A stretch of 61,218 nucleotides of DNA, from the NCBI GenBank assembly GCA_038150265.1, contig JAYOTF010000020.1:1-61218 (forward strand), written 5' to 3'. Each line of letters opens with the position of its first letter. Positions within the stretch are counted from its first letter, which is position 1. The translations under genes and the position numbers were made by a program. This DNA is from Deltaproteobacteria bacterium (GTDB taxonomy: Bacteria > SAR324 > NAC60-12). Shown here piece after piece: positions 53,868 through 61,218 of the stretch. The notes below the pieces were generated by a model. That model was not told the DNA's origin. It did not search any database and worked only from the letters and a program-made list of their open reading frames with translations.

Positions 53868-55055
53868 TCAGTCCACTTGAGCCACAAACAGGGTCTCGAA
53901 CTTACCGTTTTGGTAAACGTTCACGACCAGCGGCACGGACAGCTGACGCTTCTGACCAAAGGAGCTCATGCCCACGTACTTGAGCTTGGCATTGCCCACC
54001 ATGTAAGGGTTGGCTGCTTCGAAGTTGACCATGGTCTGCTGGAAGGCCTGGACGTCATTGATCGCCTTCGGATTGGCCTTCAGGGTCTCCAGGATGTACT
54101 CGAGGGCGTAAACCTTGGTGTTGGACTCGTCGTTGTACTCGCCGAACATCTTGGTGTAGCGGTCCACGAACTCGCGCATCATGTCGGAAGCCAACTGCGG
54201 CGTGGAGGCGCCTCCAACGGAGATGAAGCCGTTGGCCAGTTCTCCGGCCCCTTCCTTGAGCACATTGGCATCCTGAGCCGTCTCGGTCGAGATCAGGCCT
54301 TCGTAGCCCAGTTCACGAGCCGAACGGATCAGCTGCGGAGCGTTGGCCGGAGACACACCAGACAGCACGAGCAGGTCCGGACGGGTCTTGATGACCGGCA
54401 GCACCACGGGGGTGAAGTCGGTGGTGTCCACCTGATAGGTGACGTTGCTGGAGACCACGTTCAGGCCCAGTGCTTTTGCGGCAGCCACTCCGCCGTCACG
54501 CTGGCTGAGCGGATCGGACTCGTTGGCGGCCACAAAGGCGACATTCTTGATGCCTTCTTTTTCCATCAGGTACTTGTAGATGGCCGGACCCGACTGATAG
54601 TTGGCGACCATGCCCAGGACGGCGTTGGAAGCCGGAGCGGTGTACAGCTCCTTCGGGAAGGCGTACGGGAAGTACATGATGCCCTTCTGCTCGGCAACCG
54701 GACGCACGGCAGCAGCACCGTCGTCCACGTTCGGACCCACCACGTAGTGGATGCCCTCTTGAGCCATTTTCTCCATGCCGGCAATGGCCCGCTTCGGATC
54801 CTTCTGATCATCAAATGCGACAATCTCGACATCATAGGTGGTGCCTCCAATGGTGACACCGCCCGTCTCGTTGATCCACGCCGCACGGGTCTCCATGGAG
54901 CGTTGGTTGGAAATGCCCCAGGCCGCTGCCGGACCCGAGGTGACGCCCACGAATCCGATCTTCAGAACCGGGTTGGCGGCGAAGGCTGACGTCCCAAAGA
55001 CGGCGCTGAACAGGGCCGTGGTGGCCATTGCTTTCAGGAAGCTGCGTTTTTTCAT
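53868..55055 (-). CDS. LivJ/K-like substrate-binding protein
   Basis: Signal peptide, SGPAAAWG, INETGG, DDQKDP, TDF. Confidence 0.88.
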   Translation of the reverse strand: MKKRSFLKAMATTALFSAVFGTSAFAANPVLKIGFVGVTSGPAAAWGISNQRSMETRAAWINETGGVTIGGTTYDVEIVAFDDQKDPKRAIAGMEKMAQEGIHYVVGPNVDDGAAAVRPVAEQKGIMYFPYAFPKELYTAPASNAVLGMVANYQSGPAIYKYLMEKEGIKNVAFVAANESDPLSQRDGGVAAAKALGLNVVSSNVTYQVDTTDFTPVVLPVIKTRPDLLVLSGVSPANAPQLIRSARELGYEGLISTETAQDANVLKEGAGELANGFISVGGASTPQLASDMMREFVDRYTKMFGEYNDESNTKVYALEYILETLKANPKAINDVQAFQQTMVNFEAANPYMVGNAKLKYVGMSSFGQKRQLSVPLVVNVYQNGKFETLFVAQVD

Positions 55056-55142
55056 TTGGATGACTCCTCTAGGCTTATTGAATTGAGCCGCTCGGCCCAG
55101 ACGCGGCTCCGCGTCCTTAGGCTGGCTCGGGCATAATCCTAA

Positions 55143-55186
55143 TCGTTAACAATCTTGTCAACATAAAACTTGGAATTGGTGCACAA
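55143..55186. promoter_or_regulatory. three candidate GntR/FadR-type operator boxes
   Basis: TCGTTAACAA (55143), TTGTCAACAT (55155), TGGTGCACAA (55177) fit TnGT-nn-ACnA and lie between the divergent SBP and GntR genes. Confidence 0.6.
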
Positions 55187-55286
55187 TGCCTGCATTTTTT
55201 CGGAGGTGACAAAAATGACATCGTCTGAAAGTTTGTTATCGTAGTAATGGATCCGCCTGACTGAACTGATTTTGAAGGAAACTCGT

Positions 55287-55991
55287 ATGCAACCGATGCC
55301 GGAGTCTCGAGAGGACGCGGAAGAAGAGTGGATTGTTGAAAAGATCTATGAGGCTGTGCTGGACCAGCGCCTGAGGCCGGGGGTGAAGCTTTCGGAAGCG
55401 GAGTTGTGTGAGGCCTTTGGGGTGGGGCGGATGCGCATTCGGCGCAGTCTGTTGCTGCTGGCGAGTCGGGAGGTGGTGGAGTTGCTTCCAAACCGGGGGG
55501 CCTTTGTGGCCAAGCCCACGGCGCAGCAGGCCACGGACATCTTTGAGGCGCGTCTGATCATGGAGCCCCCTTTGCTGAAGATGGTGTTGGAGCGGGCTCA
55601 GGCTCCGGACCTGGCCGAGTTGGAGCAGCACCTGCGTGCCGAGTCGCAAGCTCGGGAGGCCGGACGCCGTCGGGAAGCGATCCGGCTTTCCGGGTTGTTT
55701 CACACGCACGTGGCACAGCTTGCTGGAAACGCGGTGATGATGCGTGCGGTCAAGGACCTGGTGGCTCGCTCCTCGCTGATTATTGGTCTCTATGGAGACC
55801 CCGGGTTGACGAGCTGCCGTGATGACGAACACGCCAGCATCATTGAGGCCCTGCGGGCTCATGAGGCCGAGCAGGCGCAGGAGCTGATGGTGTCGCACCT
55901 GCAGCACCTGAAGGAGCACCTCGACCTGGGGCTGCAGAAGCATGCCCCGCAAAACCTCGTCCAGCTCTTTGCGGCCGAAAGCCTCTCCTGA
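55287..55991 (+). CDS. GntR (FadR/FCD subfamily) transcriptional regulator
   Basis: LRPG.KLSEAEL...FGVGR HTH, PNRGAFV, FH...AGN, EH..I FCD motifs. Confidence 0.93.
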   Translation: MQPMPESREDAEEEWIVEKIYEAVLDQRLRPGVKLSEAELCEAFGVGRMRIRRSLLLLASREVVELLPNRGAFVAKPTAQQATDIFEARLIMEPPLLKMVLERAQAPDLAELEQHLRAESQAREAGRRREAIRLSGLFHTHVAQLAGNAVMMRAVKDLVARSSLIIGLYGDPGLTSCRDDEHASIIEALRAHEAEQAQELMVSHLQHLKEHLDLGLQKHAPQNLVQLFAAESLS

Positions 55992-56170
55992 ACGACGCCC
56001 TGCTCCCTCGGCGAGCCGCGCTCCTGGTACCTGCCCAGGCGGCTCTCCGGGGCCGCTCTTCCCCTTTCCTCCTCCCTTTCCTCCCTTGATTCCTGGCGGT
56101 GTTTCCCGCGGTGCGCCCAGCGGTTTCTCGCGGTCTGACGCCCCTTCTGAAAAAAATCGCCTCCTCCAAT

Positions 56171-56197
56171 TAAAGAAATTCTCCCGACTGCCGATAC
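56171..56197 (+). promoter_or_regulatory. sigma28 (FliA) promoter, distal
   Basis: TAAA-N15-GCCGATAC (one mismatch to TAAA-N15-GCCGATAA). Confidence 0.75.
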
Positions 56198-56247
56198 CTG
56201 AAGCAAGAAAACAAGCCCTCTCGGGTGAGGAACTGACGGAAAAGCGT

Positions 56248-56274
56248 TAAAGGTTTTCTCGGAAGTGCCGATAA
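56248..56274 (+). promoter_or_regulatory. sigma28 (FliA) promoter, proximal, perfect consensus
   Basis: TAAA-GGTTTTCTCGGAAGT-GCCGATAA. Confidence 0.88.
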
Positions 56275-56320
56275 GAGAGGGAAGTTCAGGGAAGAGTTCT
56301 GGATCTCCCAAAGGGATCAG

Positions 56321-57203
56321 GCTCGGAACCACAACAAGATCTTTGACCGAAACAATCCTGAAGGCGGTTTGACAAATTATAGCTGGTGCGGTGTTGCCGT
56401 ACCCCGCCTTTGAGACCCGCAGCAACCCATCGGAATGGGTTGTCAAGACGCTCGGAAGTGAGTGTAGGTGGCCAGGAGCTTCAGACGAAGCGACCGCTAC
56501 CGAGAAAAGAGGCAGGATGCCTTGATTCCTCCCCCCAGTCGGGGACACCACGAAAGAGATGTAGATTTGAGTGCCCTTGGAAGGGTATTGGATCTAAGCT
56601 CCAGGGACGGAGCCCTTCATGCAGGTCGCAAACGGGAGTGCAACCCGTTTAACGAGAGCCTTCAGGACGTACCAGCTAAGGCTATGCCCACACCGATTCA
56701 GTCGGCATTCCTCTGAAAAGAGGGCCTCCTCGTGTTGAGATGCCCATGCACCTGACACGAGCCCGTAGGCCCTGGAATCAGGCCATAAGGAACGCCGAAG
56801 TGAATGAGGCCTCCCTCTTCGGAACCTCGTCGTGTGTCGTCTGTCTGCCACAGGTGCGGATTCGGACGTCGTGGTGCGCGCAGAAACCGGCTCGGTTCCG
56901 TGAGAACCGCTTCAGTCGGCTTTCCCAAGCGCCCTTCTCCTGGAACCAGGAGCTGCGTCTTCGCCCCTGACCAAAAGGCAGGAACCGTGCGAACCGATCG
57001 GTCGTCTGTGCGAAAGAAACAGGGCCTGTTCGTCGCCTCACTCTGGTGAGGGACGTCGGACTGAACCCCAACCTTTCGCCGATGCTGCAGGATGGGAACA
57101 GCGTCGCTTGCCTCACCGCCTGGTGAGGGGCGTCGGACTGAATCCGGATTTCCTGCTCAGGCAAACAGGATCGGACAGCGTCGCGTGCCTCACTGCTTGG
57201 TGA
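56321..57203 (+). pseudogene. highly degenerate short-flagellin remnant (fossil 1)
   Basis: Collinear motifs by eye: NHN 56327, GLT 56366, QD 56513, ALHA 56612, F 56708, LGSV/NRF 56891-56913, AKE 57010, AQAN 57155; multiple stops and frameshifts. Confidence 0.5.
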
Positions 57204-57222
57204 GGGACGTCGAACTGAACCC
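57031..57222 (+). repeat. three imperfect tandem copies, 77-nt period, each with a CCTCAC-loop-GTGAGG hairpin
   Basis: CG(G/A)ACTGAA at 57057, 57134, 57211; GCCTCAC at 57035, 57110, 57187; shared TGGTGAGGG(A/G)CGTCG. Confidence 0.9.
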
Positions 57223-57241
57223 GAATCCCTGGCCTTCGACG

Positions 57242-57640
57242 CGAACGAATCCGACTGTGTCTCTGACGCAGGGTTCCGGACTGCGCCGAGTGTCCAGACG
57301 ACTGAGCGCCGAGGTGCAGGCTTGCAGGCTTTCGTAAAGGCCCTCTGCTTGAAGCAGGCGGCTTTGCAGGAACCTCGAGCTGCACGAAGTTCTGAAGGAA
57401 GGGAGCGTGCGAAACGGGACGCCTCGGTCGAGACAGCCAATCTGCCTCACCGCCGAAGTGAACCCGCGCTCTGGTCCTCAGGTCGAGTGAATGGAACACG
57501 GACTTCAACCTTCCCCAAGGTTGTCCAGGCTCCACTCCATGCGGCCAACGGTTATCAGCGGCTTTCGAATGAGCCCCTTCCTGGGAGCTCCTGAAGACAG
57601 CACGATTGGTACGGCTTGTTTCATCAATAAAATTTTATTT
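57242..57640 (+). pseudogene. degenerate flagellin N-terminal-domain remnant (fossil 2)
   Basis: Collinear RLS 57299, LKQA 57349, RNLE 57368, VETA 57427, LTAEVN 57446, LHAANG 57535, FINKILF 57620, spread over shifting frames. Confidence 0.55.
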
Positions 57641-57713
57641 TCATTCCACTTACCGGTTCAGGGATGGGTTCGGTTAAGTGCTTTCGGGGAACATCTCGCT
57701 TGAAGGAGGATTT

Positions 57714-59321
57714 ATGCGAGTGAACCACAATATTGCGTCAATGACTGCCTTGCGGCACCTGGGATTGACGAGTAACGCGACGGAGAAAAACCTCCAGCGC
57801 TTGTCTTCAGGCATGAAGATCAATGCAGGGGCAGACGGTCCTGCAGAGTTGATGATTTCGGAGCAGATGCGGGCTCAGGTCACCGGCCTGAACCAAGCGG
57901 TGAAGAACTCTGAGACCGGCATCTCCATGGTGCAAACGGCTGAGGGCGCCCTCAGCGAAGTGAGTTCGATTCTCATCAACATGCGCCAGCTGGCACTGCA
58001 CGCTGCCAACGAAGGGGCCAACGACGAGAAGATGCTCCAGGCGGACCAGAACGAGATCGAGAATCTGCTCTCGACTCTGGACCGAATTGCGAAAAACACC
58101 CAGTTCGGAACCCGGACCCTCTTTGACGGCAGCAACTCCGCGTCCGGAGTTGTGGTCGGCGATGGCCTGAGCTTTGTCACGGCTTCTGAAAAGACGCAGG
58201 CAGCTCCGACCAAGAGCGGTTTTGAAATCGACATCAAGCAGGTGGCAACCCGCACTGAGGTGGTGGCCGACCGTGGCTTGACGGTTGAGGACCTCGATGA
58301 AGGGGTCACCTTTGTGATCAACGAAGGCAACCGCCTGGCTCGCTTGAACACCAAGACCGACGATCCGGAAATGGCGCAGAGCATCGACCAGCTGCTCAAC
58401 AACTACCGCCTTTCCCCGGAAATCTTCGACAAGTCCGAGGTGGAGAACAACATCCGGCAGCTGGTGGCTCGGTCACTGGACAAGAAAGCAGCTGACAACG
58501 GACTGAATGTGGATGTCTTCATTGACGACGTCGGCATGCTCAACGTGCGGCACAAGATGTTCGGCAGCGAGCCTTCCTTCAGCGTGACCTCCAGCAAGGC
58601 GGGAGTGCTGGCCAAGGAAGCCAACATTGCGACCTACTCCGATGGTGGCCGGGATGTGGCCGGTTACATCGGTGGTGAGCCGGGTGTCGGAAGCGGTCAG
58701 TTCCTTGAGGGGGCAACGGGCACACCGGTGGAAGGCCTGGTGGTGCAATACGACAAGGTCCTGGAGAAGCGGATCATTGACATCAAGGATGCCCAGGGCA
58801 ACGTCATTGGCAAGGAACTGGTCCAGCAGTCCAACGATGAGCTGGTTGGCAACGATGTGGACGGCTTTGCCCACGTCGCCCAGAACTCCCTGACCTACCA
58901 GGTGGGCTCGAACTACCAGCAGACCATCAAGTTTTCGCTGAGTGACCTGCGCTCCGAGCAACTGGCTCAGGGCATGGAGAACGGCAGCGGTTACCGGAGC
59001 CTGGCAGACATTGATCTGACCACCGGAGAAGGCGCTCAAGATGCCCTCTTGATGATCGACCGAGGCATTGAGGAAGTGAACGTCCTTCGTGCCAACCTCG
59101 GTTCGTTCCAGAAGAACGCCCTGGAGACCAACCTCCGGAACCTGCGAGTGGCCAGTGAAAAGCTGACCAACGCGGAGTCAGTGATCCGTGACTCCGACAT
59201 GGCGCAGGAAATGAGCGAGTTCACCAAGAACCAGATCCTGCTGGCATCTGGAACGGCCATGGCCGCTCAGGCGAACCAAATTCCGAAGTCTGTACTGCAG
59301 CTCCTCAACGGCGCTCAGTAA
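57714..59321 (+). CDS. fliC: flagellin
   Basis: SD AAGGAGG; MRVNHNI, RLSSGMKIN, QTAEGAL, RANLGSFQ, IRDSDMAQEM, AQANQ...VLQLL; large central domain. Confidence 0.95.
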   Translation: MRVNHNIASMTALRHLGLTSNATEKNLQRLSSGMKINAGADGPAELMISEQMRAQVTGLNQAVKNSETGISMVQTAEGALSEVSSILINMRQLALHAANEGANDEKMLQADQNEIENLLSTLDRIAKNTQFGTRTLFDGSNSASGVVVGDGLSFVTASEKTQAAPTKSGFEIDIKQVATRTEVVADRGLTVEDLDEGVTFVINEGNRLARLNTKTDDPEMAQSIDQLLNNYRLSPEIFDKSEVENNIRQLVARSLDKKAADNGLNVDVFIDDVGMLNVRHKMFGSEPSFSVTSSKAGVLAKEANIATYSDGGRDVAGYIGGEPGVGSGQFLEGATGTPVEGLVVQYDKVLEKRIIDIKDAQGNVIGKELVQQSNDELVGNDVDGFAHVAQNSLTYQVGSNYQQTIKFSLSDLRSEQLAQGMENGSGYRSLADIDLTTGEGAQDALLMIDRGIEEVNVLRANLGSFQKNALETNLRNLRVASEKLTNAESVIRDSDMAQEMSEFTKNQILLASGTAMAAQANQIPKSVLQLLNGAQ

Positions 59322-59409
59322 CCCCCGTTCCATCCCGAGTCCCTTGCTCCTTCTCCTTCGGGAGCGGGGGGCGTGGGGCGGAGGATGGGCGGACTCAGGG
59401 ACGTCCTTC

Positions 59410-59690
59410 AGCAGCATTGAACGCCAGTGGTGCTGGAGAACATTCCTGAGGAAGCCACGCCTCGTGCGACGCTTCTTCAGTCAGTTGAGTACCTGGTGGA
59501 GGTTCCTGGTCAGGAACCAACGGACCGGTCGGACCCATGAGCCTTTGGAGGCCAGTGGTTCAAGACCCTGGAAGTCCGCCCGCCTGAAGCATCCAAGCCC
59601 GAAGGGCCTCCTCAGAGGAGGAGGTGCGCGGGAGTCGTTACAAAACAAAAGGTTTAATTCCCAAGGATGGGACGAGTTTTTTCAAGGAGG
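59410..59690 (+). pseudogene. degenerate flagellin N-terminal-domain remnant (fossil 3)
   Basis: SSIER 59410, SQL 59479, VRNQRTG 59509 (cf. VKNSETG), VQ 59558, NKRFNSQ 59644. Confidence 0.45.
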
Positions 59691-59760
59691 AAGTGTTGCT
59701 TATGACAATGATTGAATAGGCCCCGGCCTGGACCGGAGCCACCATCTGAGGAGGTGGTTT

Positions 59761-61179
59761 ATGTCTGTAAACATGCAAAGCAATTGGGTTGCGTTGGGAG
59801 CCACGGTTGGCAGTTCTCCGGAACGTCAGTCAGGGCGGTCTCAATCGCAGGTCCTCAAGAAGCTGAAGCCCCGGTCCTCTTCTGAATCACCTGCTGTGAT
59901 GCACATCTCCGAAGGAGTGCGCATCCATGCCTCCAGTCTGGTTCACCAGATCAATGAGGCAGAGAGTGATGTTTCCCTGCTGCAGACCGCAAGTGATGCC
60001 CTGGGGAAGGTGGAAGAGGAGCTGCGTGAGTGGAGTGCGGAACTGGAGAAGGCTGTCGAAGATGGCTCGATCTGGGAAGCAGCCCGCTTGCGGGTGGAAG
60101 CTCACCTTGAGGAGATCGACCGGATCGCCGCGATGACGCACTACGGTGCCCAGAATCTGCTGGATGGCAGCCGAGCCCTGAAGGGCTTCGCTTCCGGAGA
60201 GCACCTGGAGTTCATCCAGGCAGACGGAGGAATTCCTTCCTCTCCTGCCAAGGGCTACCCGGTGGAGGTCAAGCGCTCGGCAACCCGAGCGGAACTGCGG
60301 GGGAAAGTTCCCCTGACCCGTGAGTACATCGACCATGAGGAGCGCCTCGTCTTGAAAGAGGGCAGCTCCGAGGTTCAGTTCATCACCCGCAAGGGTGAGG
60401 ATTTGGACGAGACCCTGCGCCGCTTGGCGCTGGTGATCCGTCAGGCCGAACTCCCGCTGGAGTTGGTCCGGAATCCTTCAGGCGTGCTTCACTTCCGGCA
60501 CGTCCAGTATGGAAGCCGCTCCCGGTTCAGTGGAGCCAGTGCGACTCCAGGAGTGCTGTCTCCTGAAGCCAATCTGCTGGTCGACTCCGCCCCTGGGTTG
60601 GACATCGTCGGCACCATCAACGGTGAGCCTGTTCGTGGAATGGGACAGCTGCTGGTGGGTTCGTCGGAGTCCTCCAAGTTGGCGGGACTGTGCCTGCGAT
60701 TCAATGGCACCGGCAACAATTTGGGAGAAGTCGGCAGTGTCACGATCTTTCAAAACGGAATCCCCCTCCACATCGGAGGAGGCGTCCAGAATGCGCGACT
60801 CGGTCTGAAGAGCATCCGCTCCAGCGAGTTGGGGGGACAGGTGCCCAACGTGTCCGGGTTCACCTGCCTTGCCGACATCCAACTGGATCATCAGGAGGAG
60901 CTGAGCGATGCCCGACGGGTGGTTGAGAAAGCGTTGAAGGAGGTCCTTCAGGCCAAGGCCCGGATTGATCTTGTCAACCAGGAACACCTGCAGGCGGGGC
61001 TGCGTAAGCTCCGGCATGACCACCTGGCGCGTCAGGGGCCCTTTACTCCGATAAAGGATTCCGGAACCGCCAAGTATGTGGCGCGGAACACGCGGATGCA
61101 GATCATGAAAGACTCCGGAACCTCGACGATGGCACAAGCCCATCAGAAACCGGAAACCGTGATGCACCTGCTGAAGTAA
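59761..61179 (+). CDS. divergent flagellin-family protein, paralog of the upstream flagellin
   Basis: SLLQTASDAL, EIDRIA..T.YG..LLDG, MAQAHQ.PE.VM.LL; central domain aligns with the upstream flagellin. Confidence 0.85.
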   Translation: MSVNMQSNWVALGATVGSSPERQSGRSQSQVLKKLKPRSSSESPAVMHISEGVRIHASSLVHQINEAESDVSLLQTASDALGKVEEELREWSAELEKAVEDGSIWEAARLRVEAHLEEIDRIAAMTHYGAQNLLDGSRALKGFASGEHLEFIQADGGIPSSPAKGYPVEVKRSATRAELRGKVPLTREYIDHEERLVLKEGSSEVQFITRKGEDLDETLRRLALVIRQAELPLELVRNPSGVLHFRHVQYGSRSRFSGASATPGVLSPEANLLVDSAPGLDIVGTINGEPVRGMGQLLVGSSESSKLAGLCLRFNGTGNNLGEVGSVTIFQNGIPLHIGGGVQNARLGLKSIRSSELGGQVPNVSGFTCLADIQLDHQEELSDARRVVEKALKEVLQAKARIDLVNQEHLQAGLRKLRHDHLARQGPFTPIKDSGTAKYVARNTRMQIMKDSGTSTMAQAHQKPETVMHLLK

Positions 61180-61185
61180 TACAAA

Positions 61186-61202
61186 GAGCCCCTTGGGGGC
61201 TC
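61186..61202. terminator. hairpin after the second flagellin, possibly the terminator of a convergent gene
   Basis: GAGCCCC-TTG-GGGGCTC preceded by AAA on the plus strand. Confidence 0.45.
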
Positions 61203-61218
61203 GAGTTCAGGTCACCGC

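Follow-up and report, generated by a model that had tools for sequence, protein, structure and literature searches.

What is the role of the long non-coding region in front of a flagellin gene in a bacterium of the SAR324 group? The region occupies positions 55992–57713 of contig JAYOTF010000020.1 (Deltaproteobacteria bacterium, assembly GCA_038150265.1), which is contig C20 of a 3.39 Mb genome in 87 contigs and which, at its full length of 61,218 nucleotides (nt), is the window analyzed here. It is flanked by a GntR-like gene (55272–55991) and by the flagellin gene flagA. A sequence-only reading had proposed that positions 56321–57640 are built from two collinear flagellin fossils, retained behind intact sigma-28 promoters and possibly domesticated into a structured regulatory RNA. 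We read the stretch as a long sigma-28-driven leader of the flagA mRNA that serves post-transcriptional control, probably via CsrA and FliW, and give this reading a probability of about 0.55. That the region is a transcribed and functional leader is, in our judgment, highly probable.

Two sigma-28-type promoters lie far upstream of flagA

The promoters, the leader elements, flagA and flagB are on the + strand. flagA (57714–59321) encodes a flagellin of 535 amino acids and heads a flagellin cluster; its ATG at 57714 follows the Shine–Dalgarno sequence AAGGAGGA. The sigma-28 consensus is taken here as TAAA followed, some 15 nt on, by GCCGATAA. Two tandem sites were detected in a pattern scan. 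P1 (56171–56197) reads TAAAG-N15-GCCGATAC, is conserved in the three species of the genus and can be aligned across the family. P2 (56248–56274), with TAAAG-N15-GCCGATAA, has the full consensus and is conserved across the family. The intact promoters of the sequence-only reading were confirmed by these two sites, and the genome carries fliA (262.8 bits versus a cut-off of 189.6). The distances to the flagA ATG are 1440 nt for P2 and 1517 nt for P1, leaving a leader of about 1.44 kilobases (kb) without a large open reading frame (ORF). Genome-wide, the pattern occurs at only 10 sites, including positions 45–60 nt before paralogous flagellins on contigs C11, C41 and C13. Looser versions were found 50–95 nt before the flagellins on C5, C23 and C42. 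Overall, the motif stands directly before six paralogous flagellins, 45–95 nt from the ATG.

The arrangement was then compared with that in relatives, where G000 denotes the present genome, G001 and G002 are sister species of the same genus (g1), and g11 and g12 are other genera. Both sister species have the same tandem promoters and long leader. Seven genomes from three other genera have a promoter 809–1453 nt before the flagA orthologue, and the intervening DNA resembles no ORF product. Among public SAR324 loci with upstream sequence, the promoter was located 1079–1537 nt upstream in 8/8 loci of at least 57% identity. At 52% identity or less (n = 11), it was located 40–138 nt upstream in five loci and no such site was present in six. 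Two public loci start at the gene, so that their upstream sequence is unreadable, and were excluded from the counts. With each genome counted once, a long leader (0.8–1.5 kb, no large ORF) is present in 14/14 examined genomes with a flagA orthologue (60–96% identity), which represent at least four SAR324 genera. Six g11-type leaders are 1108–1147 nt long despite an identity of 47–66% in most pairs.

Elements that recur in the leaders of different genera are only the promoters, a motif with the consensus of about WTCTTTGAA, an AT-rich block and the Shine–Dalgarno sequence. The motif reads GATCTTTGA in the window (56338–56346) and was recognized when leaders of the orthologues from all genera were aligned at their 5' ends. 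On its upstream side the leader is preceded by a GntR-like regulator and an ATP-binding cassette (ABC) transporter in G000 and G002, and by a different gene in G001. Promoters, leader and flagA stay together where the neighbor differs, so that it is flagA, and not the gene upstream, that the leader accompanies. Independent RNA contigs and the syntenic orthologues argue against a misassembly, a possibility that the sequence-only reading had itself raised.

Protein-coding potential was searched for on both strands. Between 55992 and 57713 only short and unconserved ORFs were found, and a Pfam search of 13 leader ORFs gave no match except Flo11 at E = 0.12. A conserved ORF on either strand was rejected, with indels among the three species that are not multiples of three and an empty tblastx comparison between genera. 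A leader peptide starting from ATGATCTTTGAA, a sequence of some g11 and g12 leaders, was likewise rejected here: the corresponding codon is AAG in G000, G001, G002 and G035, and no in-frame start codon precedes it.

The leader is present in RNA libraries

Fifteen RNA runs contain part of the stretch. Contigs of four salt-marsh metatranscriptomes, from studies that may be one campaign, were mapped on positions 54000–61218. They cover the leader from 56238 or 56283 to 57269 with 0 mismatches, and flagA is covered too. No mapped RNA contig was found in 54964–56168. Between 57374 and 57614 cover was little or none (only X1, mean 0.2), and neither of these intervals was used as evidence. The start of one contig, 56283, falls 9 nt past the –10 element of P2, although a contig is no proof of where transcription begins. 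In a contig of a G001-like relative, a piece of at least 255 nt of leader continues into the coding region. No terminator-like sites were predicted on the + strand from the promoters to 59659. The RNA contigs show that the leader is present in RNA libraries, and they are no more than consistent with starts at P1 and P2.

Salt-marsh RNA libraries that contain the present organism also yielded contigs matching G001 and G002, with loose ends at window positions 57688 and 56563, so the three species co-occur.

The 5' module is constrained and folds into a branched domain

Leader identity was compared with that at the fourfold sites of flagA, which is 0.615 for G000–G002 and 0.49 for G000–G001. For G000–G002, leader identity is 0.81–0.89 in most 100-column bins of the first ~600 columns, falls to 0.54–0.73 in the middle part and is 0.78 over the final 100 columns. 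Comparison with G001 revealed isolated invariant blocks, including a 15-mer at 56663–56677, UUCAGGGAUGG at 57657–57667 and the final 29 nt through the ATG. Leader pairs within g12 and g11 were mostly above fourfold identity as well.

The most conserved part, a 5' module at 56281–56700, was identified as a multi-branched RNA domain from its identity, its minimum free energy (MFE) and its consensus pairs. Its MFE is –151.2 kcal/mol compared with –135.6±6.7 for shuffles, and 0/100 shuffles were as stable. In the consensus fold of the three-species alignment 91.1% of the cells are paired (shuffles 82.7±1.2). Of 103 consensus pairs, 22 have changed on both sides, versus 7.9±2.2 in shuffles and 1–5 when the partners were slid. 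The domain is closed by a long-range helix of 10 bp, which was found by RNAalifold and, independently, in the single-sequence MFE fold. Its 5' arm is UCCUGAAGGC (56356–56365) and its 3' arm (56658–56667) extends into the invariant 15-mer CAGGACGTACCAGCT (56663–56677). All 30 cells of this helix are paired, and one pair has changed from AU to UG in G001.

Several short hairpins lie within the domain. The hairpin GCAACCCAU-CGGA-AUGGGUUGU (56422–56443) has nine pairs that are paired in the three species, two of them changed on both sides in G001, and presents GGA in its loop in all three. Helix 11, (G)CCCU-UGGA-AGGG(U) at 56573–56586, has three double-changed pairs and also keeps its GGA loop in the three species. 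The hairpin AGGC-AGGAU-GCCU (helix 9; 56510–56522) presents GGA and is kept in G002 and not in G001. Helix 12 (56598–56613; GCUCC-AGGGAC-GGAGC) is 100% paired and has lost the loop GGA in G001. Pairing of CCUCCUC at 56727 with the Shine–Dalgarno sequence was considered and rejected, as it is not conserved in G002.

The domain does not correspond to a described RNA family in the searches made. Rfam 15 gave 0 matches at E≤1 for positions 55900–57800 and 0 matches at gathering score for nine orthologous loci. A metagenome scan with an invariant 19-mer returned 11 loci, of which only two were true. Because both of these are 99.6–99.7% identical to G001, they give no new diversity for covariation.

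Candidate CsrA sites in front of the flagA start codon

The genome encodes csrA (PF02599, 89.7 bits) and fliW (PF02623, 129.1 bits) in adjacent positions, beside a flgL-like gene. The csrA product has 77 amino acids with a C-terminal extension. The CsrA consensus from SELEX, the systematic evolution of ligands through exponential enrichment, reads RUACARGGAUGU, its GGA lying in the loop of a hairpin, and the core of the consensus is CARGGAUG (PMC7652899). In the window, CAGGGAUG fits this core and sits in the loop of a hairpin, 50 nt upstream of the flagA ATG.

The surrounding 3' end of the leader is organized as follows. An AT-rich block, AATAAAATTTTATTTTCATTCC (57626–57647), has a position that is conserved across the family. 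It is followed by a hairpin (57647–57680), which presents the invariant UUCAGGGAUGG (57657–57667) as a CsrA-type site. The stem is UUACCG/CGGUUAA in G000 and UUGCU/AGCAA in G001, and the loop is invariant. A hairpin 20–45 nt before the Shine–Dalgarno sequence is present in 14/14 leaders with differing stem sequences; in g11-type leaders the stems include GGUCA/UGACC, GGUCU/AGACC and GUCGA/UCGAC. In the alignment, a 29-nt stretch (57688–57716) that contains AAGGAGGA and the ATG is invariant in the three species, and so is the 11-nt CsrA-type site 21 nt upstream of it. Two GGA sites, UUGAAGGAGGAU overlapping the Shine–Dalgarno sequence and the hairpin-loop UUCAGGGAUGG, are candidate CsrA sites that are invariant in the genus.

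GGA-loop hairpins with loops of 3–6 nt were counted in the 5' module. In G000 and in G002, 4/11 hairpins are of this kind, with ~0.9 expected and 1/60 shuffles reaching this number. Only two are kept in all three species. In Campylobacter jejuni, CsrA represses the flaA mRNA, and this mRNA can in turn titrate CsrA (PMC4894983). With invariant proximal sites on one side and a mixed GGA enrichment on the other, we rate an action of CsrA at the proximal sites as likely; that the 5' module works as a sponge is possible, though rather doubtful.

Flagellin remnants are not detectable in the leader

The flagellin-like blocks on which the fossil proposal was built do exist. NHN is found at 56327, GLT follows exactly 10 codons on, and ALHA (56612) shares this frame. 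The TTC codon at 56708 is 381 nt after NHN, CTC GGT TCC GTG AG AAC CGC TTC is located at 56891–56913, AQAN at 57155 and LHAANG at 57535. The proposal relied on the order and spacing of these blocks. Exact word matches and their collinearity were at chance level. Words of four amino acids in common with flagellin numbered 14 compared with 8.7±3.1 (20/300 shuffles reach this), words of five amino acids 1 compared with 0.49 (118/300), and the longest collinear chain of three-amino-acid words was 18 compared with 18.1±1.6 (130/200). In the three-species alignment, NHN is not conserved in G001, and neither LGSV..NRF nor LHAAN is conserved in G002, from which the repeat copy that holds AQAN is absent.

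Pfam models PF00669 (Flagellin_N) and PF00700 (Flagellin_C) were searched in six frames over the whole genome, with stops read through and E≤10. Each model matched 18 places, none of them within 56321–57640. Using blastn, the intergenic region matched only itself and an internal 77-nt repeat in the genome. The sequence-only reading had proposed a frameshift-aware flagellin search with dinucleotide-shuffled controls, and a frameshift-tolerant local protein-to-DNA alignment was written for this purpose. The leader scored like shuffled sequence: alignment to flagA gave 37.0 compared with 36.7±3.9, and 45/100 shuffles were as high.

We then used our own N- and C-domain profiles, built from the 16 flagellins of the genome, in 18 tests (three species, two profiles, three penalty sets). 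As a positive control, the real flagellin gene scored 602. Seventeen of the 18 tests were within shuffles, and the N profile remained within shuffles in all three species. The exception was G000 with the C profile at the laxest penalties, where a score of 107 compared with 90.6±5.9 and was reached by 1/300 shuffles. Over its 101 codons, this alignment (56647–57211) requires 9 frameshifts and 18 gaps, and it includes the NRF and AQAN blocks; after allowing for 18 tests the score is marginal. The G002 orthologue, which is 75% identical, scores below its own shuffle mean, and the excess was not reproduced in G001 either. Seven leaders from other genera were subjected to 28 tests and none went beyond shuffles (lowest count 2/40).

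In simulations of neutral decay, flagA was detected in 12/12 runs at 0.3 substitutions per site, in 42–83% at 0.5 and in 0–25% at 0.7 or more. Any fossil would therefore have to be too old to recognize. The large tandem flagellin arrays of the family make birth and death of such genes plausible, and the short blocks and the one lax alignment would fit two heavily decayed flagellin genes retained as RNA. However, the leader is older than the split of at least four genera, so that a fossil signal should be ancestrally common, and it was absent from the sister and other-genus leaders alike. As an observable claim the fossil is already refuted; a fossil origin of the leader is unsupported, and we consider it extremely improbable. 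Of the earlier proposal, the regulatory-RNA half stands, with a region retained behind sigma-28 promoters, present in RNA libraries, constrained in its 5' part and carrying compensatory pair changes, while the flagellin ancestry is not supported. More generally, ordered short matches to protein motifs arise by chance in GC-rich non-coding DNA, and shuffle and orthologue controls are needed before the label fossil is applied.

A model of the leader and its alternatives

In the model that we favor, transcription would start at the two tandem sigma-28 (FliA) promoters and run through the ~1.44-kb leader into flagA as a single continuous transcript, with no intrinsic terminator predicted between. 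The first ~420 nt would form the multi-branched domain, closed by the 10-bp long-range helix and carrying short GGA-loop hairpins. The middle ~900 nt would be fast-evolving sequence with tandem hairpin repeats, and the last ~110 nt would consist of the AT-rich block, the hairpin presenting CAGGGAUG and the invariant Shine–Dalgarno region. As in Bacillus subtilis hag, CsrA would bind, with FliW as its antagonist, the site that overlaps the Shine–Dalgarno sequence and the hairpin upstream of it. More CsrA may be bound or buffered by the other GGA hairpins, those of the 5' module.

Several observations weigh against this reading. The covariation is taken from three sequences only, with a structure derived from the same alignment. 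Window fold z-scores, which average –1.3 to –3.2, are modest, and the minus strand is similar in g1. A covariance model of the first part of the module (R1, 56330–56447) strongly matched only the three g1 genomes among 45 family genomes, and blastn and tblastx between genera found nothing beyond the promoters, so that the primary sequence and the modelled 5' sub-domain are genus-specific. The next-best R1 match, G022:C216, lies inside an ORF and was rejected. Contigs cannot show strand, ends, levels or continuity of an RNA, and RNA libraries can contain DNA. The g11 and g12 leaders have no GGA enrichment, and the loop of their pre-Shine–Dalgarno hairpin is without GGA. In support of the CsrA link, the motif CA.?GGA[TC]G occurs 5 times in the leader compared with 0.5±0.7 in shuffles, and 15/9422 genome windows reach 5, but this looser motif was picked after the sequence was seen. 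For the strict core CARGGA there is no enrichment, as 1211/9422 windows reach its 3 occurrences, and plain GGA is unremarkable (44 occurrences, reached by 1351/9422). In G001 only 2/11 hairpins of the module have a GGA loop, a number reached by 11/60 shuffles.

The same data were examined for two other explanations. The 5' module, which is better conserved than the rest and forms a self-contained closed domain, could belong to an independent sigma-28-dependent non-coding RNA (ncRNA) gene from ~56281 to ~57300, with flagA transcribed from a separate promoter that lies within the AT-rich block, ~100 nt upstream of the ATG. That block is equidistant from the ATG in all genera and is overlapped by one sigma-70-like site (57606–57633, TTGGTA-16-TAAAAT, 9/12 matches). 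The site is weak, however, with 0.6±0.7 such sites expected in shuffles, and no sigma-28 site is located near the flagA ATG, unlike in the paralogues. Further, no + strand terminator-like site is predicted inside the leader to end such an ncRNA, and the G001-like RNA contig crosses the AT-rich block on its way into the coding region. We consider a separate ncRNA gene unlikely on this evidence. The variable middle, which evolves at about the fourfold-site rate, gains and loses repeat units and is shortened by ~300 nt in G035, would by itself suit a functionless spacer, left behind when an old insertion moved the sigma-28 promoters away from flagA. Non-functional DNA is usually deleted from bacterial genomes, and since the leader has been retained, a spacer is disfavored. 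A leader of 0.8–1.5 kb is kept in 14/14 flagA-orthologue loci with upstream sequence, its length is near-uniform in six diverged g11-type leaders, and the 5' module and the 3' end exceed fourfold-site conservation and show compensatory pair changes. We regard a spacer as quite improbable, less probable than a separate ncRNA gene.

A more speculative extension of the regulatory leader, and one we would bet against, is that this kb-scale sigma-28 RNA at the head of the SAR324 flagellin cluster might, with its structured 5' domain and repeat hairpins, be a cis-encoded CsrA buffer or hub, or a target of another RNA-binding protein, which sets the order or ratio of flagellin translation. If true, large flagellar leader RNAs of this kind would form a class of their own that has no Rfam family.

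Comparison with known flagellin leaders

[quoted passage not shown] The leader of B. subtilis hag is, we assume, under about 100 nt, and that of C. jejuni flaA is presumably a short stem-loop in the 5' untranslated region (UTR). The flgB operon of Clostridioides difficile we take to have a long 5' UTR of several hundred nt with a cyclic di-GMP (c-di-GMP) riboswitch and an invertible switch.

The flagA locus resembles the Hag–FliW–CsrA system of B. subtilis in its sigma-D/sigma-28-type promoter, in the GGA at the Shine–Dalgarno sequence and upstream of it, and in csrA and fliW beside late flagellar genes (PMC7652899). It differs in a leader of 1.44 kb with an extra conserved 420-nt structured domain and repeat modules, and CsrA binding is a prediction here. 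With C. jejuni flaA it would share CsrA titration, the role that we infer for the extra GGA hairpins; C. jejuni has FliW and no Csr small RNAs (sRNAs), as described in PMC4894983. Unlike flaA, the SAR324 leader is kb-long with many hairpins, and titration is a supposition from these hairpins. Several short GGA-loop hairpins and modules that apparently evolve by duplication recall the CsrB, RsmY and RsmZ sponges. In contrast to these, the leader has no Rfam match and no terminator of its own, and only two GGA-loop hairpins are shared by all three species. RNAs of the CsrB/RsmY/RsmZ type occur in bacteria without FliW, as stated in PMC7652899. Sigma-28-dependent UTR-derived RNAs of Escherichia coli are also ncRNAs from flagellar UTRs that act post-transcriptionally on flagella synthesis (PMC10578931), but they are small base-pairing sRNAs, unlike the SAR324 leader. 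The C. difficile flgB operon likewise has a leader of several hundred nt before flagellar genes. The flagA leader differs in that it matched no riboswitch family and showed no convincing inverted repeats or read joints for an inversion.

In a limited literature search, neither flagellin regulation in SAR324 nor a kb-long flagellin leader under sigma-28 was found described. The nearest known systems are the short CsrA-controlled flagellin leaders, of which this one would be a variant with a far greater length and a domain. At fifteen times their length, it would bring extra regulatory input that is absent from model organisms. It is kept across a family of abundant uncultured marine bacteria and stands on one of 16 flagellin genes (17 with flagB). 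It would add a large unclassified structured RNA to a short list.

The variable middle and further elements of flagellin loci

The variable middle of the leader (56735–57615) holds most of the supposed fossil blocks; its G000–G002 identity of 0.54–0.73 is close to that of the fourfold sites. It includes three tandem 77-nt units (57021–57251), each with a GCCUCAC...GGUGAGG hairpin (fold z-score –2.28). One of these units is missing from G002, and the units repeated in G001 are different ones. In the leader of G035, the ~300 nt mentioned above are missing from this part. An invertible element via the inverted repeat I1 (56660–56675/57581–57596, 81% complementary) was rejected: the RNA contigs contain no joints, and the 3' arm is not conserved.

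Seven g11-type leaders (L053, L054, L055, L056, L058, L067 and L047) have a strongly conserved central block, UGAAGGGAG..CUCUCUUGAUAAGACG..CGUC, ~450–520 nt before the flagA ATG. Its stems are kept and its loops vary. The rest of these AT-rich leaders is ~50% identical, and six of the seven have the length of 1108–1147 nt given above.

Downstream of flagA, the window contains flagB (59761–61179), a divergent flagellin-like gene. Its N domain scores 22.9 bits, below the Pfam cut-off, and its C domain 23.4 bits, at the cut-off. In relatives flagB is always paired with flagA, with 34–41% identity between genera. The genome has 16 flagellins above the Pfam cut-off in addition to the divergent flagB and an FlgL-like gene. 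They are distributed over contigs C6 (482–10924), C13, C11, C5, C23, C41, C42 and C66 and positions 57714–61179 of the window. In the family, 43/45 genomes match flagellin, with up to 36 matches per genome that form mostly tandem arrays directly downstream of flagA–flagB. SAR324 bacteria have 10–36 flagellin genes.

A flagellin on C13 (C13:2–712, minus strand, ending the contig) has TCTTTGAA and an AT-rich run ~15–40 nt before its ATG, directly before the Shine–Dalgarno sequence. In the flagA leaders, unlike here, the TCTTTGAA-type motif and the AT-rich element are ~1 kb apart. The pair could be a common protein-binding element or a trace of leader growth. The flagellins of the C6 array are without the sigma-28 consensus, several have a GCATGGA-type motif ~90–110 nt before the ATG, and their Shine–Dalgarno sequence is of the CAGGAGGA type. 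The missing sigma-28 consensus, together with the motif and the Shine–Dalgarno type common to the array, suggests that the C6 array may use a different promoter class.

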